NCBI GenBank assembly: GCA_965207375.1
Contig: OZ242274.1
Span: forward strand, 1,600,001-1,664,000
Length of the DNA stretch: 64,000 nucleotides
Source: Nitrosopumilaceae archaeon
GTDB taxonomy: Archaea > Thermoproteota > Nitrososphaeria > Nitrososphaerales > Nitrosopumilaceae
Direction: 5' to 3'
Part shown: positions 35,220 to 49,741 of the stretch, piece after piece
Layout: the number at the start of each line of letters is the position of its first letter
Position numbering within the stretch: position 1 is the first letter of the stretch
The notes under the pieces: model-generated
What the model was told of the DNA's origin: nothing
Seen by the model: only the letters and a program-made list of their open reading frames with translations
The model's database searches: none
Made by a program: the position numbers and the translations under genes

Positions 35220-37052
35220 CTATACCAAGTTTAAAAGTCTTAATTTTATTGAATCATCGTTACCAAGTTCTATGCGTTTTTCCCTCTCATCGGTAAGCGA
35301 ACTCAAGATGTTGGCGCCGTGTTGTTTTAATTTGTACAGGATATCATGTGGGGTAGGAATGTCATTTTCGTCCTTTTTGTACCCTGGTGCAGAAACTTTT
35401 GCAATTAATTTATCGGGCCAGGTGTCATATTTGCGCGAGTCAAACCACAACATAAAGCTTGTACACGTAGTTTCAACCACATCAAGAAGAGATTGTGGAA
35501 TCTTGTCACGTTTTTTTAAATCTTGAAAGATCTTTATGATTTCATCTTCGACGAATCGTCGTTGGTCTATTGGAATTTCTGCCATCGATATTCCTATAAA
35601 TCGTAAAATAAAATACTTTATAGTTTTCTTGCCAAATATTTGCATCTGCCTCTTGTATCTATCTTTAAAGTCACAAGTTTGAGATTTTTTGCCCCAGTTT
35701 CTACACAATTCATCTATAGTTGTTAGGAATATGTGCGGTATGATTAGTTCTTTGATCTTACGATTCAAAAAGACCTTGTCATATTCAATGCGTTCTGCAA
35801 GCGAGAATAGATCTTTTTCTGGCATCATGGCCCCATTAGGATCAATTGCATAGGCGTAATATGCCCTTGCAGTGGTGTTTTTCTTTAAAAGTCGACGTAA
35901 AGTAACACGATTCTGTATACGGGCAGGCTCTGAACCAAATCCATTAGTTTGTCTTTCAAAATAAAAATCATTAAAATGAGTTTTACACTGAGATACAAGA
36001 TCACGCAATTCATCTGCAGTTGCTATTAAATCGATTGGTTTAATCGGATTTTGTGTATTTGTAGTTTGGCTTATCAGTACGTGCTCATCATCATCTGCCG
36101 TTTCGTGTATAGTCAGTGTTACAAAAATATCTTCAATTGATTCAGGTGATTTTTCCAAGACATATGTAGTCTGTCGTCCATTTACCACTTTGAGATTCCT
36201 AACTATGAATTCATTGGGGGAAGTTTCCTCAAAACCATCACACACAGCAGTAATACCGTTATTTAGTTTCCAAAATTTCTTTTGCCTCACAGAATCTGCA
36301 ATTGTTTTTAATATCTCTCTGTTTGTAAGTGACATGCTTAGATGTTCACGCGGATTTTCTAGATAAATGGAACGTTTGTAAGGCTTTATTGATTTGATTA
36401 AATCATGGGCATTGACATGACCTAAGATTGATGCTTTTTTGGTGGTAGGATCAGGTCGTTTTATTATATTGCCATTAAAATGAATTTTGATGTCAGGAGT
36501 ATGGGGCGTTCTGACATGTGAAAGAATTTCATCCAAATCTAGTATTTCGATGTTAATATCTGGGGAAAGCTTGTCACATTCATCATGAATCAACTGTTTT
36601 GCCTGATCATTTAGTTTACCTGTTACTGCAAAAAGCAGGATCTTTTTAAGATTAGGATTTTCTTGCCGCAACATGTTATAATCTCTGGATTTTTGTTTAA
36701 AATTAGAATTAGCGTCGTTTGGACAATTTTCCAAATATTTTAGCGTCTCTCTAAAAGATAAAATTTCCTCCCGGTCTACGATATGATTTAGCGTACTGCT
36801 GAATTTTGACTGTACAATCCACACGGATTGATTAGTTCCATTTCCGTCATAGTCTATGTACAGTATATCTATACCATAATCATTGGAGCCATCAATGCTT
36901 ACTGCCTCATCAATATCAAGTTCACTGTCAATGTCTAAAATATTGGTACATACCCAGCGTGGAAATGCCTGATAGTCTTTGATATCGTATTCTTTGGAAA
37001 TGTTTTGTATCTCTTCTATAAATTGTGACTGCATCTGCTCATCAGACATCAT
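35220..37052 (-). CDS. AIPR-family (abortive infection phage resistance) protein
   Basis: DGSNDYGID, IVQSKF, ENPREHL, FWKLNNGITAVC, VVNGRQTT, TNTQNPIK..DL, YFERQ. Confidence 0.88.
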   Translation of the reverse strand: MMSDEQMQSQFIEEIQNISKEYDIKDYQAFPRWVCTNILDIDSELDIDEAVSIDGSNDYGIDILYIDYDGNGTNQSVWIVQSKFSSTLNHIVDREEILSFRETLKYLENCPNDANSNFKQKSRDYNMLRQENPNLKKILLFAVTGKLNDQAKQLIHDECDKLSPDINIEILDLDEILSHVRTPHTPDIKIHFNGNIIKRPDPTTKKASILGHVNAHDLIKSIKPYKRSIYLENPREHLSMSLTNREILKTIADSVRQKKFWKLNNGITAVCDGFEETSPNEFIVRNLKVVNGRQTTYVLEKSPESIEDIFVTLTIHETADDDEHVLISQTTNTQNPIKPIDLIATADELRDLVSQCKTHFNDFYFERQTNGFGSEPARIQNRVTLRRLLKKNTTARAYYAYAIDPNGAMMPEKDLFSLAERIEYDKVFLNRKIKELIIPHIFLTTIDELCRNWGKKSQTCDFKDRYKRQMQIFGKKTIKYFILRFIGISMAEIPIDQRRFVEDEIIKIFQDLKKRDKIPQSLLDVVETTCTSFMLWFDSRKYDTWPDKLIAKVSAPGYKKDENDIPTPHDILYKLKQHGANILSSLTDEREKRIELGNDDSIKLRLLNLV

Positions 37053-37481: not shown

Positions 37482-39170
37482 CTAATAGTAATGATGCATC
37501 TGCCGCTGCTCCAAACCCTCCTGCTCCCAGTGGTTATGGTTTCTTCCAGGTTCTTTGTGGGCGTGAACGGTCCCGTCAATATGGCAATGAGTATTGTCAA
37601 TAAGGTCTTTTACAAAGACGTCATCTACATTCAAAACCATATTTACCGCCTCAATAGAGGATTTTAACATCTGCTCTTTGACTGCAGCAGTATCTATTAT
37701 TCCACTCAAAGACATATCCTCCACACCTCTGGCACTAGAGTTAATCCCGTACCACCTAATTTGTCCGGTTCCTGAGGTTTTTGCCCTTAACTGCGGCAGT
37801 ACATCTAGCGTATTCATACCCACATTTCTTGCCAATGTCAACGGTATTTCGTCTAATGCATCGGCAAAACTTTGTATCGCTATTTGCTCCTTTCCTTCTA
37901 TTGATTCTGAAATTTCTCTGACCCTTTGTGCAATTATTGCCTCACATGAACCGCCGCCGAAAACGACAAATGGATCTTCAATAAAGTTTCTCAGCACAAA
38001 GATCGCATTTTTTACCGTACGATGAAACTCGTCAAGGTATCTTTTTGAACTGCATCGCAGCAGGAGTGTTACTGATCTGGGATTTTTTGCCTCTACAAAC
38101 AACATCTTATCCTCGCCGACATTTCTCTCGTATACGGAGGATGCAAAACCCAATTCATCCTTTGAGATTTTTTCAACATCCTTGCATGTATGAGCACCTG
38201 TGGATTTTTCCAGCCACCATAAATCATTATATTTTACCCTCCGGACCGAGATTATTCCCTGTTTAGCAAAGTATTCCTGTGCCAATTCTCCTATACCCTT
38301 CCTTGATATGACCAGTCCGGCACCTGATTCAGCAACCTTTTTGGCCAGCAAAAGGACATCACTTCCTTCTTGCTTTAGGAATTGACTCATCTGGGATGGG
38401 CTGGTGATCTCTATTTCTGACTCTGCCTTTGTCCGCATGGTTTCTAGCGGGTCGTTTAACAGCAGAACCTTTACGTCTTGCAGGCAGATTGGCATTTCAG
38501 AACTATCCACAGTCTTGTCAATTACAGTTCCCATTACAAGCTGGATGTCCCATGAGTTGCCAGATTTTTCTTCAATTTTGATGTCGTCTATGTCTATCTT
38601 TTGATTGTTAAAATCTGCCACAGCACAGACTGCATCCATTATCATCGCCCGTATCTTTATATTTTCAGGCATGGCATCAAAGATTGCCTTTCCTTCCAAA
38701 CAAGAATCAAGTAGCTGCTCCATAAGATTCCTGTCAGTATGACTCGACTTGATCTTTATCTCCTCCAAACATGTCAGGGCAGCCTCCAAGCTCATTTCAA
38801 AGCCTCGGATAATTGCTGTTGTAGGTATACCCATGCTGCGTAGCTTTTGCGCATGTTTTAGCAATGCACCAATTAAGACTGCAGACGCTATAGTACCATC
38901 GCCCACATGCCTATCCACCGTATTTACTGCTTCGACAACTGTTTTTGCAGCAGGATGATCAACGTCTACCTTTCTCAGAAAAGCCCCGCCGTGATTGGTA
39001 ATGGTTTCCTCCCCCAAGATGTCTATGTAGACCTTATCCATTCCTCGTGGGCCAAAGGACGTCTTGATGGTTTCAGTTACTAGTTGTCCTGCAATGATAT
39101 TGTACATCTGCGATTCCCTGATTCCGATCCGCGAGAGTTCTGGATTGATTATGTCCGGATATTTCATCAT
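37482..39170 (-). CDS. divergent group II chaperonin (thermosome-like) with substituted catalytic Asp residues and a His-rich C-tail
   Basis: SFGPRGMDK, HPAAK, VGDGT, GGGSCE, FADALDEIPLTLARN; TNDG->TNHG, SLHDAL->TVKNAI; tail THCHIDGTVHAH...NHNH...MHHYY. Confidence 0.9.
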   Translation of the reverse strand: MMKYPDIINPELSRIGIRESQMYNIIAGQLVTETIKTSFGPRGMDKVYIDILGEETITNHGGAFLRKVDVDHPAAKTVVEAVNTVDRHVGDGTIASAVLIGALLKHAQKLRSMGIPTTAIIRGFEMSLEAALTCLEEIKIKSSHTDRNLMEQLLDSCLEGKAIFDAMPENIKIRAMIMDAVCAVADFNNQKIDIDDIKIEEKSGNSWDIQLVMGTVIDKTVDSSEMPICLQDVKVLLLNDPLETMRTKAESEIEITSPSQMSQFLKQEGSDVLLLAKKVAESGAGLVISRKGIGELAQEYFAKQGIISVRRVKYNDLWWLEKSTGAHTCKDVEKISKDELGFASSVYERNVGEDKMLFVEAKNPRSVTLLLRCSSKRYLDEFHRTVKNAIFVLRNFIEDPFVVFGGGSCEAIIAQRVREISESIEGKEQIAIQSFADALDEIPLTLARNVGMNTLDVLPQLRAKTSGTGQIRWYGINSSARGVEDMSLSGIIDTAAVKEQMLKSSIEAVNMVLNVDDVFVKDLIDNTHCHIDGTVHAHKEPGRNHNHWEQEGLEQRQMHHYY

Positions 39171-39230: not shown

Positions 39231-40823
39231 TCATGTTCCGATCGAGGACTTGGGCTTGTCGTCAGCGTCATCTGGACTGTTCGTGCCGACATCAAATCCT
39301 GAACTCATAAATTCACCCTTAAAGTGTTTCAGGTCCTCGCCTGCAATGATGTCTTCCTCTGGAGGTACATAGTCTCTGACATCATGACGTGCCTTGCCAG
39401 GATACCTGTTCTGTGTAGCAAGGGCAACACCTATGAAAACCACAAATGAAACAACTGGCGGGATCATCGTATCTAGACCCGCTAGCTCCTCTGGCATGGT
39501 GAAGAAAAACGACAGTCTGAGAAACGAGCCTACAAGCAATGACGCTATTGCTGCTGGCATGTTTGCCTTTTTCCAGAACAACCCAAATGTCAGTGGTGCA
39601 AACGCACCTGCAAACATGATATCAAATGCAAGAACCAAATAGATGCCCGGCGCAGGTACAAAGTAACCCAAGGTAGTTCCTGCTACCATCATTGGTATTA
39701 TTGTGACCCTCGTCATCCAGAGCAGCTTTTTGTCATCGGTGCCCGGCTTTCCCAGCCACCGCCTGCGTATGATTCTGGTTACTAGATTTCTAGATATGAC
39801 ACTTGATATTGCCAACAGTCCCCCGCTTGCAGTGGACATGGAGGCACCTATGACACCCATAAGTATGGCAGCCCCAACTACAAACGGAAGGTGTTCAGTT
39901 GCCAACAATGGCAAGGCAAAGGCTGGAACAGTATCTGGTGGGAGGTAGTACAGGGCAACTATTCCCAACATACTGGTTGGAACCACGGTAAACAGTGTCA
40001 AGGCACCTCCCATAAATGCCCCCCTCCTTGCAGTCTTTGGACTCTTTGCAGCAAACACCCGTTCCATAAAGTCAAGGGCAATGATATCCCCAAGACCTAG
40101 TGCAAGTATTGCACCCCAATTGATCAATGCACCGTTTCCAATATCAAACAATCCGGACAGATCCAGAAACTCTGGAGGGGCACTGTTGTATATGGCATCC
40201 CACGGTACACCAGAGAATCCACCTGCAAAGAAAAGAAAACCCACCCAGAATGCTCCAATTGCAAGATATACTTGGAACAAATTAGTATAGGCAGAAGCAA
40301 AGAGACCACCGGCAACGGTATATGCAACCACTACTAGCGCCGAGATCAATATTCCCCAAAAGTAGTTTATCCCAAAGACGGTTTCTAAAATGAATCCGCT
40401 TGCAGCTAAATTGCCTGCAACTAAAACTATAAAGCTAATAATCATCAGTACCCCCGATATTCCTTCTGCGCCATTACCATATCTTCGAAAATAAAAGTCA
40501 GGCAAGGTTATCATCATCATCTTGTTGAGTGGCTTTGCATAGAACATGGCAGTAATTAACAGGCAAACTCCTAGGCCTATTGGCACTACTGCACCTGCCC
40601 AAAATCCAAACTCAAATACAAGAGCCACGTTTCCAAGCGTAGAGTTGCCATCTACTGCCTGGGCAGCAAGCATTGTTCCGACCATTGCAAGCGGCAAACT
40701 TTTTCCTGCAACAATCAGGCGTCTCCCGCTCTGCTTTACCAGCTTTCCTGCTAGAACGCCAACTACTAGAGTCAAGATGATGAAGGCAGCTATTGCAATA
40801 CCAAAGTCTCCAAAGTCGGCCAC
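39231..40823 (-). CDS. sodium:solute symporter (SSS) family transporter
   Basis: About 13 TM segments; VAGKSLP, TLPDFYFRRYG, YTVAGGL, ERVFAAKS, ASMSTASG, GLFWKKAN. Confidence 0.92.
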   Translation of the reverse strand: MADFGDFGIAIAAFIILTLVVGVLAGKLVKQSGRRLIVAGKSLPLAMVGTMLAAQAVDGNSTLGNVALVFEFGFWAGAVVPIGLGVCLLITAMFYAKPLNKMMMITLPDFYFRRYGNGAEGISGVLMIISFIVLVAGNLAASGFILETVFGINYFWGILISALVVVAYTVAGGLFASAYTNLFQVYLAIGAFWVGFLFFAGGFSGVPWDAIYNSAPPEFLDLSGLFDIGNGALINWGAILALGLGDIIALDFMERVFAAKSPKTARRGAFMGGALTLFTVVPTSMLGIVALYYLPPDTVPAFALPLLATEHLPFVVGAAILMGVIGASMSTASGGLLAISSVISRNLVTRIIRRRWLGKPGTDDKKLLWMTRVTIIPMMVAGTTLGYFVPAPGIYLVLAFDIMFAGAFAPLTFGLFWKKANMPAAIASLLVGSFLRLSFFFTMPEELAGLDTMIPPVVSFVVFIGVALATQNRYPGKARHDVRDYVPPEEDIIAGEDLKHFKGEFMSSGFDVGTNSPDDADDKPKSSIGT

Positions 40824-41491: not shown

Positions 41492-42855
41492 TAGACAGTA
41501 GCGCAACTACGACTTGGTCCAAATCTAACTCACTTGATCCAAGTCTGATTGACTTGTACTGTAAAGTTTACAGTCATTATGCTCTAGCCATGGCCTCCTG
41601 CGCTATGTCTAGCATTTTATTGTATGCAAATACCTTAAATGAAATCTCCCGAACTATGTTTTCCATCTTTACTGCCATTACAGCGCTTCCAAACATTCGC
41701 TTGAATGCCGAAAACATTATCTCAACTAGCCATCTTCTGCCGTATCCTACCTGTTTTTTCCACTTTTTCATATTTTCTGCACGTTGTGCATCAGTTAATG
41801 TTGCAAATGTATTGGCATGCACTCCTCCTCCAAGCTGTTCTAGTACAGCCTTTTTGCGCGCCCTGCCTCCCTTTCTACCACGTACCTTTGCAGCAGAGTT
41901 AGAAGCTACTGGTGATACCAGCTCGATTCCAAATAAATCACACATATCAAAGAACTTGCATTTTGAATACAGTCCATCACCTAACAGTCTGATATTTGGA
42001 TTATTGTCTTTGTCCTTTTCTTCCAAGCGAGTCTGAATTGTATCTGTTGAATCATATTCTTTATCCTGTTTTGTATCTTGTTTTTTTGTACCACTCTTTA
42101 CATTCTCCTGTTTTGTATCTAGTTTTTCTGTATCTTGTTTTTGTACCTGTACACCCAGATTTTCTAGTGCGGTTTCAATCATATTCTCTAGTCCCATTGC
42201 TTCTCCGGTACGCTCATCTGTAATCTCATAGGCAAGTATCTTCATGGTATCGTGATCAATTATTGTTGTAAATCTGATAAAACCACGCCTAACTTTGTGT
42301 TTGGCACGTATAAATTCTCCACGGGTACACGGCTCTAGGCCTGTACCGTCAGGTAGTATGCTGATTGTAACCTTGTTATTACCATTTTTTTTGAATGTCA
42401 TCTTTCCAAGCTTGTCTGTATCTAGTGCTAGAATGCGTGTGCGTATTTTTGTAAAATGTGGAACGTTGTCTTTACCAAGGGATTCTGCTGCTAATCCTTC
42501 AAGTACACGATATGACAATCCGCACATTGAACGTACTAGTGCTAGGGCAACAAACAACGAATCAGGATATTCATACGGATGTCCGTTTTTTTTCTTGTTC
42601 ATACTGCGTAACTCCTCTTGTATTTGTGGATCATCAAGACTTTTGTTGGTCAATGCAAGCTGTCTTCCACGTTCGATGTATCTTGCATCGTTTTGAGCAT
42701 GAGTAATTTTAGTTCCATCAGCTAGTTTAGGCACAAGCATACAAGTGATATCATGATCAAAAAGCACGTAATGTAAAAAATCCTGATGGATTAGTCTAAT
42801 ATGGGTCATTTCGTATGATTTTGAAGGATTTTAGGCAGGGTTGCGCTACTGTCTA
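41492..42855 (-). mobile_element. IS5-family insertion sequence
   Basis: Perfect 16-bp IR TAGACAGTAGCGCAAC; direct repeat AACAATTC (8 bp, extendable to AACAATTCTA) on both sides. Confidence 0.88.
41577..42809 (-). CDS. IS5-family DDE transposase (true start may be 42740)
   Basis: GHPYEYPD, LSYRVLEG, PHFTKI, PDGTG, LLGDGLY, WKKQVGYGRRWLVEIMFSAFKRMFG. Confidence 0.88.
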   Translation of the reverse strand: MTHIRLIHQDFLHYVLFDHDITCMLVPKLADGTKITHAQNDARYIERGRQLALTNKSLDDPQIQEELRSMNKKKNGHPYEYPDSLFVALALVRSMCGLSYRVLEGLAAESLGKDNVPHFTKIRTRILALDTDKLGKMTFKKNGNNKVTISILPDGTGLEPCTRGEFIRAKHKVRRGFIRFTTIIDHDTMKILAYEITDERTGEAMGLENMIETALENLGVQVQKQDTEKLDTKQENVKSGTKKQDTKQDKEYDSTDTIQTRLEEKDKDNNPNIRLLGDGLYSKCKFFDMCDLFGIELVSPVASNSAAKVRGRKGGRARKKAVLEQLGGGVHANTFATLTDAQRAENMKKWKKQVGYGRRWLVEIMFSAFKRMFGSAVMAVKMENIVREISFKVFAYNKMLDIAQEAMARA

Positions 42856-44153
42856 AACAATTCTAATACTTTCTCATCTAATAATACCATTACACGCAAG
42901 ACAGAAAAATACGAATCAACAAAAAACTGTCTAGAAAAACCTAGAGAACAACCTGATCACAATAGTGTAACCCACAAGGTCAAAGTAGATGAAGAAAAAG
43001 ATCACGTCTTGTACACATGTATCAACTGTGGTTCTGAGGACATAGACTGCATATGTATCAAAATCATAACGATGACTGATCTTCAGTAGATGGAAATTCA
43101 CCCCTAACCTGCGCCACCTGCATCGTACGGCATTCCAACAATTCTGATATATTCTAAAGCACACACCATAACTGCACCGATCATCTGTCTCATTGTAATG
43201 TTTGACTGTGATACGTCATCATATCGCATCAATGTCCACATGTTGCGCATGAAAACGCAAATAAAAAACAGAAAAATCCGAAACAGATGATTGCGACTAC
43301 TGGTTCTAGGTCTGAATTGTTCTAGCTGTCTGTAGCCTGTCTCTATTCCCCACCTACGACGATACGCCTTTGGCAGCATCTCAATCTCTTTGATGGCACG
43401 CTCCTGTGATAAATTGGTGGCAAAGACTACATACTTTTCAATTATTTTAGCATCAGGATCATTATACTTTTTGGATTTTCTGATAACTAGTGTAAAGGTG
43501 AATTCTTGTCCATCTTTGTTTTTCATGGTATGAGACGACACTGCATCTGCTTTTCCTTCGTGGAATTTTATAATGCTATTTTTGATTATGGCGTTTTTTA
43601 CTGCTGGCATAAGAAACGTATAATGATTTTCGTAGTGATTTCATGACCTCTACTGAGAAAAATTCTCTATCTAGCAGCAAAAGGCGTGGATGAATCTTGT
43701 ATTTTTGCAGATTTTTGGCAAATCTATGCACGAAATCTACATCAGAATCGTCTTTGGTTATTGGAACACAATCCAGGGTAGGATTTTCATCTTTAGCTAC
43801 TATCTGCATGGTAGCATAAGCCTCAAATTTGGTGGTGCCCTTGTATGATTTGGACCGTATCAGATAAGCCAAACTGCCCTTGTCGTATCTTGGTATGAGA
43901 TGTTTGTCCATTGCAATCAGTGTGTCTGTTTTGTGAATTATTGTTTTTATTGCAGGTCGTGCTGTCTGGAGTATCATTTCATTGCAGACATGTTCTGTTT
44001 GATCAGAACTCATGCCATTTATCATGTTGCGTATCCATTTTCCACCTGGTGCATCTTTGTTAGTTTCAAAATCTGCAGCTACGGATTCTGCAGTGATACG
44101 AGAACGACTCATTTCAGTTAGCATTGTTGTAAAATTTACTAGTTTGTATTTTG

Positions 44154-45648
44154 GTACTTGTTCACGTGGTGTCTACAATTTCACCATTTGTTCAAATTTT
44201 GATCACCATCAGATCTAAATCATTCTGACTCACAAGTTGTATAATGAGTACCATCAACTGGAAAAGTGCATACAAAAAGGAACACCGAAAAGTCCTTCTT
44301 CTTGAATCTCTAGTATCAAGTTTACAAAAAATCATATTACAAAAAGATGACCTCCTACTACAAAAAGATAAAAAAATTCAAGAGCTTACCAAACGTGACA
44401 ACTATCATGACAATTCCAATACTCCTCCATCTAAGGATTCCATTACACGCAAGCAGGACCGCAAAATACGTGCAGAGAACAAAAAATCTACTGGAAAAAA
44501 ACAGGGAGGACAACCTGGTCGCACAGGTGTAGCCCGCAAGGTCAAAGTAGATGAAGAAAAAGAGCACAAATTAGACACGTGTACCAAGTGTGGTTCTCAA
44601 GACATACACCATACAGACACCAAAATCAGGATAATAACTGATATTGTGAAAACTCCTCCTCCACATACTTGCAAGCACAAGATTCATGGGTATCATTGCA
44701 ACTGCTGTGGAGCTACTGACATTACACCCGAGGTTGACATTCCAAAAAAGGGTCAGTTTGGAAATGAAGTGATAAAGGAGATAATGGATAATCACATACA
44801 TCGCATGCCGGTACGTATGAACAAGGAGGCCATGAAAAGACGTGGAATCGAAATATCTGAAGGAGGTATTCAAAACATCATAGATACAGTCTCTGATGCG
44901 TTATTTGTGCCTGCAAATGAGATAAAAGAAAAGATACAGGAAGCCGAGATTCTGATAGCAGATGAGACATCAGAGCGACTGCATGGAAAGACTATATGGT
45001 TGTGGACGTTTCATAATCCAATTACAAGTGAGAATTTCTATATAATTAATCCCAGCAGAGGAGCAGACGTACTCAAGGAAATAATAGGTGACTCACAAGA
45101 TATAATCATTACCTGTGACGGATGGCCTCCATACCGCAGATATATCATCCAGAGATGTAACGCGCACCTAATACGTGAAATCAAAACAATATCACAAAAG
45201 AATCCAGATTCTAAAATTGCAAAAAATACACTACAATGCCTACAAAAGATATACCATGACGGCAAACATGTCCTAGACAAACCACCTGATTACAGAGAAT
45301 CATATGCTGTACAATTGGAAAAAAGAACACGTAACCTTGTCAAAAGGTATGCCAATGATGAAATTGTGGGTAAATTTGTAGCAAAACTGTCACGGGCCAT
45401 ACCTGACATGTTTCGGTTTGTCATAGACCCTCGTATACCATCTACAAGCAATCTTGCAGAGCAGAGCCTGCGTGAGTATGTCGTGTGCAGGAGAATACGT
45501 GGATGTCTCAGATCTGAAAAAAGTATGGAGCGTAGAGGCAATCTGTATACGTGTGTTACTACCTGGAAGAATCTGGGACAGGATTATCTAGCAGAGCTGG
45601 TTCGGTACATTTAGGGCCAAAAATGCTCAAAAATAGGTGAACAAGTAC
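44154..45648 (+). mobile_element. intact single-ORF IS66-family element with 8-bp TSD GTATTTTG
   Basis: IR GTACTTGTTCAC/GTGAACAAGTAC; GTATTTTG at 44146-44153 and 45649-45656. Confidence 0.93.
44244..45614 (+). CDS. IS66-family transposase (TnpC-like)
   Basis: NSNTPPSKD, KQGGQPG, CxxC zinc finger, ADET, CDGW, QRCNAHLIRE, TSNLAEQSLR. Confidence 0.93.
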   Translation: MSTINWKSAYKKEHRKVLLLESLVSSLQKIILQKDDLLLQKDKKIQELTKRDNYHDNSNTPPSKDSITRKQDRKIRAENKKSTGKKQGGQPGRTGVARKVKVDEEKEHKLDTCTKCGSQDIHHTDTKIRIITDIVKTPPPHTCKHKIHGYHCNCCGATDITPEVDIPKKGQFGNEVIKEIMDNHIHRMPVRMNKEAMKRRGIEISEGGIQNIIDTVSDALFVPANEIKEKIQEAEILIADETSERLHGKTIWLWTFHNPITSENFYIINPSRGADVLKEIIGDSQDIIITCDGWPPYRRYIIQRCNAHLIREIKTISQKNPDSKIAKNTLQCLQKIYHDGKHVLDKPPDYRESYAVQLEKRTRNLVKRYANDEIVGKFVAKLSRAIPDMFRFVIDPRIPSTSNLAEQSLREYVVCRRIRGCLRSEKSMERRGNLYTCVTTWKNLGQDYLAELVRYI

Positions 45649-46165: not shown

Positions 46166-46906
46166 TCACAGGAATGCAGATAGTTTCCCAGAAGATAAAA
46201 GTCCGTGAATTATTATTGTCCCTATAATTACAGTTATGGTTCCAGTCATAATTTGCAGACCTTTTCTTAACTTGGTAACTCTAGACACAAGGCGGAGTGG
46301 AACAGACAATGTACTGCTTGCCACCATCATACCGATTATAGATCCTAATCCAAACACCAACACAAACGAAAACACACCGTACATGTCACCTAGTGTCACC
46401 GCACTCACTGCAATCAGGCTTCCGCTTCCTGCTAGGCCGTGAATACATCCTATTAGATAGGACTTGTGAGTGTGTGAGTGACTGTCTCCGTGTCTATGTG
46501 GATGAGTGTGAATTGGACCGTTTTCATGTACATGGGGATGCGAATGCCCCAGATGGATTTTCTTTTTGTACATCGATATCCCCAATGCCACCAGCATCAC
46601 TCCGACTGCAAGCTCAAATCCATCAAATATGACAGATGGAATTTTAAATGCAAGTACAAAGACCAAAAAGCTGACCAGAAGGATCATGGAGGTATGACCG
46701 AATCCCCATATGGCTCCCAGAAGGGAGTTTCTCAGTGTCGCCAGTCTAAAGGACACAGGTGCTTTCTTTCCTTTACTATTTTGCATCTGTATCATCACTG
46801 CACTGATGTGATCTGGTTCAAAGGCATGCAAGAGGCCTACTAAGAATCCAGCTGAAAGCAAAAGACCTGTGCTGTTACCCAGCTGGCCGAGTGTTTCTAG
46901 AAACAT
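46166..46906 (-). CDS. His-rich nickel/cobalt transporter (UreH/NiCoT-related)
   Basis: GLLHAFEPDH, WGFGHT, HSHPHVHENGPIHTHPHRHGDSHSHTH, GCIHGLAGSG, FGLGSIIGM. Confidence 0.88.
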   Translation of the reverse strand: MFLETLGQLGNSTGLLLSAGFLVGLLHAFEPDHISAVMIQMQNSKGKKAPVSFRLATLRNSLLGAIWGFGHTSMILLVSFLVFVLAFKIPSVIFDGFELAVGVMLVALGISMYKKKIHLGHSHPHVHENGPIHTHPHRHGDSHSHTHKSYLIGCIHGLAGSGSLIAVSAVTLGDMYGVFSFVLVFGLGSIIGMMVASSTLSVPLRLVSRVTKLRKGLQIMTGTITVIIGTIIIHGLLSSGKLSAFL

Positions 46907-47295
46907 CAGAATCCTCGCACGGAAGAACGCAACGCAATGTCCCGTACAGGTATCGGCCTGTACAGTGAAACAGTGTATTTTTTATCCAAAATCACCTCAA
47001 AATCTAGCCTCTGAAGCATCTCTGGAACTCCAATCATTACCTGCCCTGCAGATAAAATTGACGATGCATCTTGTCTTGTCCTGTTTGCGGTTTTTCCCTC
47101 CATAATATATGAAACAACAAAACCTGCAAACAGCAATAGCGTTTCATTGATGTTTATTTTTTGCTGTAGAGTCTGCATTTTTTGTATTTTTTCACATGAT
47201 GCAATAAATATCTCATCGTCTGGTTTTTGAAACCGGAACCTTTTTTTGTACGGCAAGATATCTGGCTCCCCGTGGATTGTTATTGTAATTTGCAT
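46906..47295 (-). CDS. orphan, divergent urease gamma-subunit (UreA)-like protein
   Basis: KININETLLLFAGFVVSYIMEGKT...ILSAGQVMIGVPEML...YRPI resembles UreA KLNYPEA...GK.V...VL...QVM.GVPEM...H.PI; no ureB/ureC in the window. Confidence 0.7.
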   Translation of the reverse strand: MQITITIHGEPDILPYKKRFRFQKPDDEIFIASCEKIQKMQTLQQKININETLLLFAGFVVSYIMEGKTANRTRQDASSILSAGQVMIGVPEMLQRLDFEVILDKKYTVSLYRPIPVRDIALRSSVRGF

Positions 47296-48411
47296 CTAAT
47301 CTCTCTTTGGTATCTCTGCCTTGGGATTGCCAAAATTATACGTGTTGCCAGTTCCCCGATAGTCGTGCGGCCGTACAGGACTTCCACCATCCAAGCCGCG
47401 CTTTGTAAGGGATAGGCCAGCAAGCAGTTCTACCACGAGTCTCTGTCCTAGGCCCGATGTTATGCCTCCATTGTAAGAGCTGTTGTCACTTACGTCATAG
47501 GCAGGCGATATCTCTACTAGGTCCATTGCAAACCTGTCGGGATCAAATGATTTGGATAACAGTCGAATCATCCTGATTCCTTCTCTTGATGTAAGGCCGT
47601 TTGGTTCGGGCTCTCCGGTTCCAGGTGCATATGCTGGGTCAAAGGAATCAATGTCCCAGCTGAGATAAACTGCGTCTGTGCCGTCGTTTGCCCTGTCTGC
47701 AATCTCCTTTGCAATGTAATCAATTCCTAATTCTTCTACATCTAGCATTGTAAACCATTGAAAGTCCTGGTCTGCCATCCATTTGTACAGGTCAGGACCA
47801 GGCCAATATCCCCTTGGTCCTACAAGGGAATAGTTCTTTCCCTTTAGGCAGCCCATCTCCATTATCCTCCGTATGTGTGCACCATGATCATATTTGTAGC
47901 CGGTCAGGCCTTGCGGTGCACAGTCTGCATGTGTATCAAAATGAATCATTCCAATGTTTTTGAATTTTTTGGCAAAAGCACGAACGTTTGCATATGTAAT
48001 GGAATGATCTCCCCCAAGCATGACTGGAATTCCATCCTGCTCAAGAACCTCCTTTACCTTTAAGGTCATTCTCTTGTGTGACTCTATTACGTCTCCTGGA
48101 GAAACCAAAACGTCCCCGTAATCCACAGTTCTAAAGGTGCCAAACGGATCAGCACCGGTCTCTATGTTGAATCTCTCATATGGTGGGGACGGAACAGTGG
48201 AGGCAGCCCTGATTGCACGTGGACCATACCTTGCACCCGGACGGATTGTAGTTCCAAAATCAAAAGGCTCTCCAATTATTGCAACGTCTGGTTTTACCTC
48301 TTTTAACTCCTTATGGGACTTGATCCAAGGTAGGTGAAGAAAGGTGTTGATTCCAACAAATGGAGCCACATCTGCCCCTCGATAGTCATCACCGTAAAAC
48401 TCCATTCCCAT
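47296..48411 (-). CDS. ureohydrolase (agmatinase/arginase family), substrate uncertain
   Basis: GEPFDFGTTIRPGARYGPRAIR, GGDHS, DTHAD, HG, SWDIDSFDPAYAPGTGEPEPNGL, DLVEISPAYD. Confidence 0.93.
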   Translation of the reverse strand: MGMEFYGDDYRGADVAPFVGINTFLHLPWIKSHKELKEVKPDVAIIGEPFDFGTTIRPGARYGPRAIRAASTVPSPPYERFNIETGADPFGTFRTVDYGDVLVSPGDVIESHKRMTLKVKEVLEQDGIPVMLGGDHSITYANVRAFAKKFKNIGMIHFDTHADCAPQGLTGYKYDHGAHIRRIMEMGCLKGKNYSLVGPRGYWPGPDLYKWMADQDFQWFTMLDVEELGIDYIAKEIADRANDGTDAVYLSWDIDSFDPAYAPGTGEPEPNGLTSREGIRMIRLLSKSFDPDRFAMDLVEISPAYDVSDNSSYNGGITSGLGQRLVVELLAGLSLTKRGLDGGSPVRPHDYRGTGNTYNFGNPKAEIPKRD

Positions 48412-48529: not shown

Positions 48530-49741
48530 GTGTTTTCCAAGACCAAAAACGAGTGGAGCATAATCAACAAGGGACTCTACTGGGAGCGCTATAATGAATT
48601 CAAAAAGGCAATACGACAGTTTGACAAGGCGTTGCAGGTAGACCCGCAAAATATAGTTGCAAATACACATAAAGGAAATTCACTATACGAGTTAAACCAA
48701 TTTGTCGAGGCTCTGAAATGTTTTGAACTGATTTTGAGCACTGATCCAAAAAACATAACTGCCCTGCACAGCAAGGGACTGTGCTTAGAAAAGCTTGGCA
48801 GGTATAGGGAGGCAGTCTCGTCCTTTTGCAAAGTACTGGCAGTAGATCACAACTATTTAGATTCAAAGACATGCATGGCAGATTGCAAAAGCAGTATGGG
48901 CATGCACAGTGAGGCCATTGAGATTCTAAATGACGTACTAGAATATGATCCAAAAAATGTCTGGGCCATGTACAGCAAGGGCAGGATTCTTGGCAGGATG
49001 GGACAAAAACACAAGTCCATGACGTATTTCAGCAAGGCCGCATGGGAAGAGTCGATACAGTCAAAGAAATGCTATGAAACAGGCAAGCAATTGACTGACA
49101 GTGGCAAGCACGAGGAGGCAATAAAATGGTATTCCAAGGCCCTCAAGTACGATTCAAATAATTTGGATGCTCTAGTTGCCAAGGGTTGGACGCTGGATCT
49201 GGCGGGATTTTCGACAAAAGATGTCTTTCCATTCTTTGACAAGGCACTTGAGATTGACCCAGAGTTCACTCATGCATGGCTAAACAAGGGATTTGTCTTT
49301 GATCGTATTGGAATGTTTTCAAAAGCCACAGAATGCTTTGAAAACATCCTCAAGTACGATCCCAAAAATGTCAGGGCACTGTACAGCAAGGCAGTATCTT
49401 TGTTTTCATTAAAACAGTATAGTGCTGCTGTCTTTTTTTGCCAAGAAGCCATAAGAATCGAACCGTCTAACACCAAGGCATTATGTAGCATGGTGTGGAT
49501 CTTAGAACACAAGAAAAAATATGATGAGGCTCTCAAATATTGCGACCTAGCACTCAAATGCAATCCTCAATATGTCTATGCAATAAGTTACAAGGGAAAA
49601 ATTTTATTTTCAATGAAAAAATATGATGAGGCTCTCAAATATTATGAAAAGGCACTACAGTTAGATCCAAAAAACCAGACCGCAATATATTACAAAAACC
49701 AGACGCTTGAAAAACTTGAGAAAAGCAAAAAACAAATCTGA
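48530..49741 (+). CDS. tetratricopeptide-repeat protein
   Basis: About ten 34-aa units of the type A...KG..L...Y.EA...F.KAL..DP.N. Confidence 0.93.
   Translation: MFSKTKNEWSIINKGLYWERYNEFKKAIRQFDKALQVDPQNIVANTHKGNSLYELNQFVEALKCFELILSTDPKNITALHSKGLCLEKLGRYREAVSSFCKVLAVDHNYLDSKTCMADCKSSMGMHSEAIEILNDVLEYDPKNVWAMYSKGRILGRMGQKHKSMTYFSKAAWEESIQSKKCYETGKQLTDSGKHEEAIKWYSKALKYDSNNLDALVAKGWTLDLAGFSTKDVFPFFDKALEIDPEFTHAWLNKGFVFDRIGMFSKATECFENILKYDPKNVRALYSKAVSLFSLKQYSAAVFFCQEAIRIEPSNTKALCSMVWILEHKKKYDEALKYCDLALKCNPQYVYAISYKGKILFSMKKYDEALKYYEKALQLDPKNQTAIYYKNQTLEKLEKSKKQI

Follow-up and report, generated by a model that had tools for sequence, protein, structure and literature searches.

The window analysed here is a stretch of 64,000 nucleotides from a Nitrosopumilaceae archaeon (assembly GCA_965207375.1, contig OZ242274.1, positions 1,600,001 to 1,664,000 of the forward strand), and its minus strand encodes a third group II chaperonin paralogue, here called CPN3, which ends in a histidine-rich tail. 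We show CPN3 to be a full-length group II chaperonin with a tail that is under purifying selection, stronger than that acting on the chaperonin body, and with a distribution that follows an arginase-family ureohydrolase and an SSS-family transporter, not urease. The gene and its distinguishing features are the following.

37482..39170, minus strand: CPN3, third group II chaperonin paralogue (open reading frame of 562 amino acids (aa); PF00118; AlphaFold2 (AF2) model)
37485..37601, minus strand: His-rich tail of CPN3, residues 524-562, IDNTHCHIDGTVHAHKEPGRNHNHWEQEGLEQRQMHHYY (translation)
38007..38024, minus strand: HRTVKN, residues 383-388 of CPN3 (alignment to the Methanococcus maripaludis chaperonin, Mm-cpn, and translation)
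38886..38903, minus strand: GDGTIA, phosphate-binding motif of CPN3 (translation and homologue alignment)
38991..38993, minus strand: codon of H60, at the site of Mm-cpn D60 (alignment to Mm-cpn and translation)

A third thermosome paralogue with a conserved histidine-rich tail

The assignment of CPN3 to the group II chaperonins rests on sequence and predicted fold alike. Pfam Cpn60_TCP1 (PF00118) covers residues 31-520 with 438.4 bits against a cut-off of 34.3, and residues 3-522 align to Mm-cpn with a phmmer E-value of 4e-110. The cut-off of NCBIfam thermosome_alpha NF041082 is passed (485.9 vs. 450), while CPN3 falls short of the cut-off of TIGR02339, the stricter model of the archaeal thermosome subfamily (479.7 vs. 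671.1). The AF2 model, for which an alignment of 45 relatives served as input, is confident (predicted local distance difference test, pLDDT, 85.7; predicted template-modelling score, pTM, 0.82) with the exception of residues 523-562, and it contains the built-in lid as helix 258-281 of the apical domain. In Foldseek the model matches Mm-cpn 3rus with template-modelling (TM) scores of 0.85/0.92, the best matches overall being Mm-cpn, the Thermococcus KS-1 protein and the T. acidophilum thermosome (TM 0.83-0.93).

The nucleotide-binding motifs GPxGxxK, GDGT and GGG as well as the nucleotide-sensing Lys are all kept in CPN3, and residues G40, P41, G43, D91, G92, T93, K161, G405 and G407 are invariant across 45 sequences. 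For finer comparison we used a set of 120 close homologues, those listed at 62-100% identity in a search of 5.8 billion proteins, in which all named organisms are Nitrosopumilus. The middle position of the GGG motif, Gly in the CPN3 of the window, is Ala in 80 of these 120. GDGTIA of CPN3 corresponds to the GDGTTT site of Mm-cpn; a first-pass annotation of this DNA had listed the change to GDGTI as notable, but position 94 is occupied by T in 81, V in 17, I in 10, S in 10 and A in 2 of the 120 sequences, so that we regard it as lineage noise, and the motif Asp is retained in 120/120.

The host genome (4.3 Mb, 4 contigs) contains two further thermosome genes, to which CPN3 is only 36-38% identical. 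Both of their products keep D60, D388 and GDGTT and have Gly/Met-rich C-termini, APGGGPSAGPPGMPGM and SAGPPPGAEGGMGGMPPGMGGMPGMGGMPDMGGMM. It is the largest genome among the 201 of the family sampled here, most others having 1-2.7 Mb and few 3.2-3.9 Mb. As observations on other chaperonins of the data set, two proteins, P0123 (1057 aa) and P0126 (1047 aa), match the chaperonin in two stretches each and look like tandem group II chaperonin fusions, and a CPN3 tail match at G071:C2:725268-725453 belongs to an unusually long open frame (1122 aa, roughly double the norm), possibly reflecting fusion or read-through with the upstream gene.

The tail of CPN3 contains 8 His in 39 residues, compared to 7 His in the other 523 residues, and is modelled with a pLDDT below 50. 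Three HxH pairs and a terminal HH make up the eight His, which are invariant in nine tails from the clade of the window and from a second set of CPN3 proteins termed class b; a class-b tail with the same pattern is AMYTHTHGDGTTHSHTKGNKPHDHFDKLGKMQRPSHHYY. The same four His groups recur in the Nitrososphaera-type family (f3 in our numbering, Nitrosopumilaceae being f1), e.g. in VVMAKPAYYTHTHSDGTTHSHRGGKQVHDHFDKLGKQQRPMHHYY. The final residues are nearly fixed, with HHYY or a close variant in 120/120 close homologues. The annotation had described the tail as His/Cys-rich; the His part of this description holds, the Cys part does not, as the tail of the window has a single Cys, which is missing from deeper branches.

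Within CPN3 the tail is the best-conserved stretch of 40 residues, with a mean column conservation of 0.92 compared to 0.81 for the body across the 120 homologues. At the codon level we compared 38 coding sequences (the window and 37 loci; 703 pairs). The median rate of nonsynonymous differences (dN) is 0.079 for the tail and 0.248 for the body, the tail being lower in 684/703 pairs, with synonymous differences saturated in tail and body alike at about 0.8; in the 224 pairs with a usable synonymous rate (dS), the tail likewise has the lower dN/dS, 0.055 compared to 0.121. The tail thus evolves roughly three times more slowly than the body and is under the stronger purifying selection. Its pattern also exceeds what is expected by chance: among the best 150 chaperonin representatives from a library of 1.84 billion proteins only three have at least four His within the last 40 residues, and all three belong to the CPN3 family.

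A profile of the last 62 residues of CPN3 gave strong full-length matches in Nitrosopumilaceae and in 41 of 78 f3 genomes; in the other families searched with it, the matches were only weak and partial, to the helix preceding the tail. In nearly all of the genomes searched, the CPN3 frame is uninterrupted. Proteins carrying the NCBI name Nitrososphaera are 72-90% identical to the f3 CPN3 of locus L076 and possess the tail, which is found in 119 of the 120 homologues nearest to this Nitrososphaera-type protein, the exception being a fragment of 442 aa. Between f1 and f3, CPN3 identity is 42-74%. In a quick maximum-likelihood IQ-TREE run with Shimodaira-Hasegawa-like approximate likelihood ratio test (SH-aLRT) support only, 44/44 tail-bearing proteins form one clade (SH-aLRT 100) separate from 17 ordinary thermosomes, with the f3 proteins basal and the clade of the window most derived.

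Replacement of the hydrolysis aspartates

Alignment to Mm-cpn places ITNHGG of CPN3 at the TNDG site, resulting in H60 for D60, and HRTVKN at the ARAVDD site, resulting in N388 for D386 along with a new histidine, H383. A group II chaperonin with TITNHG and HRTVKNAI had been proposed in the annotation, and both motifs are borne out by this alignment and by translation of the codons. The catalytic Asp pair expected of a hydrolysing group II chaperonin (D60 and D386 of Mm-cpn, sites which we take to be equivalent to GroEL D52 and D398) is accordingly absent from the CPN3 of the window. PDB titles label Mm-cpn D386A as the pre-hydrolysis, ATP-bound state.

The substitutions are shared by the close homologues, with H60 in 119/120, N388 in 120/120 and H383 in 120/120. 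They are no property of the family as a whole. In the 120 homologues nearest to the Nitrososphaera-type CPN3, D60 is present in 120/120, D388, and with it the full Asp pair, in 118/120 and H383 in 118/120. All six class-b proteins have D388, with position 60 being D in three, N in two and S in one, and Ser occupies position 388 in 3/8 f3 CPN3 loci. The loss of both aspartates, put forward in the annotation, therefore stands for the clade of the window and falls as a trait of the family. Since the deeper relatives keep the aspartates and carry the tail, the alignments and the tree place the tail first and the Asp replacement later: Asp loss is, as judged from these sequences, a derived trait of the subclade of the window, the tail is older, and the aspartates were replaced at least twice. 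Any impairment of the ATPase would likewise be a later, lineage-specific step, because the Nitrososphaera-type relatives combine the tail with both aspartates. The annotation had made conservation among orthologues its test, and this test turned out in its favour: orthologues share the substitutions and the tail, and the tail shows a lower dN than the body, so that this is no case of local decay.

Genomic linkage and co-occurrence with an arginase-family hydrolase

CPN3 belongs to a module of genes which in the window is split by an insertion-sequence block, and which comprises, together with its neighbours, the following features.

39231..40823, minus strand: SSS-family transporter, 530 aa, 60 bp upstream of CPN3 (Pfam SSF)
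41577..45614, no strand assigned: insertion-sequence block splitting the module (Pfam transposase matches)
41577-42809 and 43104-44124, minus strand: DDE transposase open reading frames (Pfam)
44244-45614, plus strand: IS66 transposase (Pfam)
46166..46906, minus strand: NicO/NiCoT-like membrane protein, 246 aa (hydrophobic segments, HAFEPDH, His-rich loop LGHSHPHVHENGPIHTHPHRHGDSHSHTHKS)
46906..47295, minus strand: UreA (urease-gamma)-like small protein, 129 aa (Pfam Urease_gamma 1.1e-6)
47296..48411, minus strand: arginase-family ureohydrolase, 371 aa, the proposed client (Pfam Arginase 1.9e-80)
48530..49741, plus strand: TPR-repeat protein, 403 aa, divergent from the hydrolase operon (Pfam TPR_1)

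On the minus strand the order is hydrolase, UreA-like protein, membrane protein, about 4 kb of transposases, SSS transporter and CPN3. In most related loci the hydrolase operon and the SSS-CPN3 pair are uninterrupted by such a block. Among 49 related Nitrosopumilaceae loci the SSS gene is found in 46, of which 41 have it immediately upstream of CPN3 in the same orientation, and the hydrolase gene in 37, which includes 36 of the 37 loci having at least 7 kb of sequence upstream of CPN3. Most loci have a divergent arrangement; the window and L004 show a collinear one, rearrangements are seen in L042-L046, and the linkage is kept throughout. All 8 f3 loci have CPN3 no more than 5 kb from the hydrolase, 6/8 having it next to the hydrolase operon, with the UreA-like gene alongside in 7/8 and SSS in the locus in 8/8.

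The co-occurrence of these genes was tallied across 201 Nitrosopumilaceae genomes from 27 genera. The CPN3 tail is found in 74 genomes, the hydrolase in 72, SSS in 70 and the urease alpha gene in 98; CPN3 coincides with the hydrolase in 69, with SSS in 68, and all three module genes are present in 67. CPN3 and urease occur together in 71 genomes, and 27 genomes with urease lack CPN3, 24 having none of the three module genes; many of these 27 genomes are 96-99% complete. CPN3 and the hydrolase are distributed over the same 18 of the 27 genera, and in genera in which they are patchy their counts are equal or nearly so (e.g. 3/17, 3/17, 5/16, 4/16, 4/16 and 3/16), pointing to repeated joint gain or loss of the two genes. 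In f3, CPN3 is present in 41 and the hydrolase in 42 of 78 genomes, with both in 41, the hydrolase of the odd genome lying at a contig end. Of the 50 f3 genomes included in the tail and urease searches, 25 are without CPN3, and 21 of these 25 contain urease. The counts include four genomes flagged as unpublished (G092, G369, G434 and G503), each of which shifts a count by one and on none of which a claim depends alone. A urease accessory protein would be expected wherever urease is present and within the urease locus; CPN3 does not show this pattern, and it tracks the arginase-family hydrolase and SSS, not urease. The link to the ureohydrolase, already suggested in the annotation, is strengthened by this near-perfect co-occurrence and by the finding, described below, that in genomes lacking the chaperonin the hydrolase has a His-rich tail of its own.

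The hydrolases are 79-96% identical across f1 and f3, far above the values for CPN3, with f3 hydrolases 79-84% identical to that of the window. Residues H136 (GGDHS), D159/H161/D163 (DxHxD) and D253/D255 (DxD), which we take to be the metal ligands, are invariant in 18 hydrolases from two families. The nearest solved relatives are guanidinobutyrase 3nio (4e-51), 7esr (6e-49) and 9fek (8e-48); 7esr, like 7oi1, is a cyanobacterial guanidine hydrolase and 9fek the guanidinase of Nitrospira inopinata, both being nickel enzymes. Further solved relatives are guanidinopropionase and metformin hydrolase, the metformin hydrolases being nickel-dependent according to abstracts. Haloarchaeal homologues at about 55% identity carry the NCBI name 'agmatinase family protein'. 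For the cyanobacterial guanidine hydrolase, high activity is described only with nickel-loading chaperones, and for N. inopinata no nickel loader is known and the loading is described as unexplained (PMC11410670, available text). We do not claim the hydrolase to be a guanidinase: by the criteria of the screen in the available text of the same paper, no guanidine-degradation genes are recognised in ammonia-oxidising archaea. The SSS protein appears in the literature as a DUR3-type urea transporter (PMC6790972, in the text available), and its clustering with 'agmatinase' in soil clades is noted in the accessible part of one paper (PMC11131427). The substrates of SSS and of the hydrolase are to be taken as putative.

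A complementary arrangement is found in a further family, f5. The hydrolase is present in 3/4 f5 genomes, and the thermosomes of 4/4 genomes are tail-less, matching CPN3 up to about residue 537 with 46-48% identity. The three f5 hydrolases, with 417-438 aa, all have a His-rich C-terminal extension, e.g. YNFSMPNGSARYSDLHTHKDQKGRTQIHSHSHGHHGHNHTKRELENFKNDRRHRTSKRLK.

L082:5893-7146, plus strand: f5 hydrolase
L083:9521-10837, minus strand: f5 hydrolase
L084:7-1323, plus strand: f5 hydrolase

The extension terminates in a basic RRHRTSKRLK-type motif. Downstream of the hydrolase and on the same strand follow NicO-like, UreA-like and then ureABC/accessory-like genes, as judged from position and size, with a second UreA-like open reading frame between the hydrolase and the NicO-like gene in L083 and L084. 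Across 88 clusters of hydrolase homologues the extension occurs in six, and in four of these six the last 55 residues include 9-11 His. The occurrence of a His-rich segment either on the chaperonin or on the enzyme suggests the need for such a segment being tied to the hydrolase. Homology of the CPN3 tail and the f5 extension is not claimed, the alignment of the two being marginal.

Several neighbours of CPN3 relate to nickel. In L076 and L077, CPN3, NikR and a transporter follow each other in this order on one strand in an apparent operon, with NikR_C matches of 1.1e-25 in L076 and 2e-25 in L077; behind NikR, L077 encodes a NicO permease (7.6e-21) and L076 an ABC transporter of the ZnuABC type. 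The latter (ABC-3, ABC_tran and ZnuA; L076:5350-7996, minus strand) lies between the hydrolase operon and CPN3/NikR of this Nitrososphaera-type locus. Urease genes are located on the other side of CPN3 in L076/L077, ureB and ureC in L076, and ureE and ureABC adjoin the module in L011. A genomic link to nickel uptake and regulation (NikR, NicO) and to urease, as well as a conserved flexible His-rich segment, both of which would be expected of a nickel metallochaperone, are thus found for CPN3. The nickel idea of the first-pass annotation gains comparative support from these NikR and NicO genes. The membrane protein of the window has HAFEPDH, which presumably resembles the NiCoT signature, and a homologue encoded in L079, to which it is 35% identical, matches NicO weakly (1.9e-4). 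As a strict member of the module the NicO-like permease is ruled out, since its 91/201 genomes include some from genera without the module, while most class-b genera lack it. In the genome of the window HypA was not found; one UreG is encoded beside urease and two NikR genes elsewhere, and urease lies 1.3 Mb from CPN3, which stays with the hydrolase and SSS.

Further observations concern the surroundings. The UreA-like gene is a conserved neighbour of the hydrolase gene, which it directly follows, in three families (f1, f3 and f5); its product is distinct from true UreA and might be a hydrolase subunit or an adaptor. The TPR protein is encoded in 37/49 related loci, 5/8 f3 loci and 2/3 f5 loci, its length being about 400 aa among Nitrosopumilaceae and 168-257 aa in the other families (open reading frames in L074, L075, L078 and L080-L083), and could be a co-chaperone or a reader of C-terminal peptides. 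The transposases of the window are two of the DDE_Tnp_1 type, one of them split into two open reading frames, and one IS66. An AIPR (abortive-infection-like) protein of 610 aa (35220-37052, minus strand) is encoded just downstream of CPN3, outside the conserved module.

A proposed role in nickel supply to the hydrolase

Taken together, the distribution, the linkage and the tail suggest a model according to which CPN3 is a client-dedicated third thermosome paralogue, the tail of which would supply nickel to the arginase-family ureohydrolase; we give this reading roughly even odds (a probability of about 0.5). The C-terminal tails of chaperonins point into the folding chamber, at the floor of the cavity. 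The flexible eight-His tail, in place of the Gly/Met tail, would bind nickel there, and the hydrolase would fold in, or be handed, a high local concentration of nickel, with its two-metal centre being filled during or just after folding. In this way CPN3 might stand in for the HypA/HypB-type loaders used by the cyanobacterial nickel-dependent relatives of the hydrolase. In the lineage of the window with D60H and D388N, CPN3 would bind ATP without hydrolysing it and would probably work alongside the two housekeeping subunits in mixed rings, or else serve as a holdase. Urea released by the hydrolase would then be split by urease, which would explain why the module is present almost only in urease-positive genomes and why urease does fine without the module. 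A stronger form of the model, in which the cage is itself a metal-insertion device with nickel-binding histidines by the dozens on each ring floor, folding and metallating a single uncharacterised ureohydrolase in one step, is in our view less likely than not. In this form the subunit of the marine lineage would also have given up ATP hydrolysis, His60 and His383 would lie in the former gamma-phosphate pocket, and the pocket may itself be a metal site.

Several observations weigh against this interpretation. Five genomes have the CPN3 tail without the hydrolase, four of them being 54-84% complete and the fifth (G099) containing a remnant: at G099:C1:333793-333972 the tail match lies in an open frame of 64 aa, in a genome 99% complete and without hydrolase and SSS, and this frame is probably what was left after loss of the module. 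Conversely, the hydrolase occurs without detected CPN3 in G018 (210 contigs), G070 and G107. Related genomes are moreover no independent samples. Most arginase-family enzymes use manganese, and the sequence of the hydrolase neither separates nickel from manganese nor decides the substrate. Concerning the nickel-related neighbours, the 246-aa NicO-like protein of the window has no Pfam match at E-values up to 1, and the presence of NicO-like genes in genera devoid of the module loosens their connection to it. The f5 extension is identical to the CPN3 tail in 12/24 positions with an E-value of 0.029, which stems from a single comparison and is possibly compositional. Finally, nearly every genome with CPN3 also has urease, frequently as a neighbour, so that it could be urease which NikR, NicO and the tail serve.

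The latter point leads to the published reading of an Hsp60 homologue, in which CPN3 would be a folding or stabilising factor specific to urease. It draws on urease alpha being present in 71/74 CPN3-positive genomes, on ureE and ureABC in the L011 locus and ureB and ureC in L076, and on the stabilisation of urease proposed in the available text of PMC5797428; since 27 of 98 urease-positive f1 genomes manage without CPN3, 24 of them with none of the three module genes, as do 21 of the 25 CPN3-negative f3 genomes, since urease is 1.3 Mb away in the genome of the window, and since f5 carries the His-rich segment on the hydrolase and not on a urease subunit, we consider it quite unlikely. CPN3 could also be a general store or buffer for nickel without a particular client, like Helicobacter pylori HspA or Hpn, keeping nickel for any nickel enzyme in need of it and guarding the cell against excess. 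Such a role would fit the conserved tail and the NikR and NicO neighbours, and it has a precedent in HspA, a nickel storage pool, deletion of the extension of which lowers cellular nickel (PMC3856676, available text). A store should, however, follow nickel use in general, i.e. urease, yet CPN3 follows the hydrolase and SSS almost 1:1, and selection maintains an entire chaperonin body, lid and ATP site included, which makes a mere store improbable.

In a further alternative, the tail binds Zn, Co, Cu or no metal at all and is a pH-sensitive, assembly or partner-docking element, read for instance by the TPR protein, CPN3 being a chaperonin specialised for the module without any part in metallation. 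His-rich segments are not specific for nickel, the TPR neighbour is conserved in 37/49 loci, and HHYY or a close variant closes the protein in 120/120 close homologues; the three evenly kept HxH pairs and the linkage to NikR/NicO nevertheless point to nickel, and the TPR protein is also encoded in f5 loci without CPN3, so that this explanation, too, appears unlikely. That CPN3 is a decaying duplicate, the ATP site and tail of which have drifted, could be read from the two replaced catalytic residues and from the 36-38% identity to the housekeeping paralogues. It is extremely improbable and refuted by the conservation data, as 119-120 of 120 homologues share the replaced residues, dN/dS is 0.121 for the body and 0.055 for the tail, and the frame is intact in nearly all genomes, a true remnant such as the 64-aa frame of G099 looking different.

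With Mm-cpn and the archaeal thermosomes CPN3 has in common the fold, the lid helix, GPxGxxK, GDGT and the nucleotide-sensing Lys; unlike these it has H383, a His-rich in place of a Gly/Met tail and, in the clade of the window, H60/N388, and unlike the universal housekeeping thermosome genes it is patchy and stands in operon context with a metabolic module. Flexible His-rich termini are found on the nickel metallochaperones UreE, HypB and SlyD, and in the eukaryotic CCT rings some subunits hydrolyse little ATP; none of these unites a His-rich tail and a low-ATPase chaperonin subunit in one protein, as CPN3 would. The HypA/HypB-like loaders of GdmH, which we take to be named GhaA and GhaB, have the same proposed job, i.e. 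bringing nickel into an arginase-family enzyme, and belong to an unrelated protein family. CPN3 resembles H. pylori HspA as a component of a chaperonin system with a His-rich C-terminal extension, in an organism relying on urease, and both are linked to NikR. HspA is a nickel binder with roles in the maturation of nickel enzymes and in nickel storage (PMC3856676, in the text available). There is no sequence relationship between the two: HspA is a group I co-chaperonin lid (GroES) and the only GroES of the cell, whereas in CPN3, an extra paralogue, it is the subunit of the group II cage that carries the tail. The His/Cys-rich extension of HspA serves hydrogenase and not urease.

Abby et al. (2018; PMC5797428, available text) described an Hsp60 homologue in the urease loci of Nitrososphaerales and Nitrosocaldus and stated that Nitrosopumilales lack it; judging from the tail-bearing proteins named Nitrososphaera and from the urease genes beside CPN3 in L076 and L077, it probably belongs to the same family as CPN3. 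The available text of that paper describes it without reference to histidine, nickel, arginase or agmatinase, whereas we find CPN3 in 74/201 Nitrosopumilaceae, tracking the hydrolase. In the full-text literature, subscription journals and supplements aside, we found no description of a His-rich archaeal thermosome tail or of replaced hydrolysis residues, and no report of the CPN3 family in Nitrosopumilaceae or of its coupling to an arginase-family enzyme.

Our data correct the published view that the chaperonin is absent from Nitrosopumilales and serves urease. If the model holds true, CPN3 would be the first thermosome cage subunit with a built-in metallochaperone function and, in the lineage of the window, a natural chaperonin subunit devoid of the hydrolysis residues and yet strongly selected. 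It is a candidate answer to the question of how arginase-family enzymes are loaded with nickel in organisms without HypA/HypB-type helpers, the case of N. inopinata being unresolved in the available text of PMC11410670. With the transporter, the hydrolase and the urease encoded elsewhere in the genome, some guanidino compound would become a source of urea and ammonia for roughly one in three Nitrosopumilaceae and for about half of the family of Nitrososphaera type. In ocean and soil, few microbes are as abundant as the ammonia-oxidising archaea, and intracellular urea derived from an imported or internal guanidino compound would represent an unrecognised input to nitrification, entailing an extra demand for nickel.

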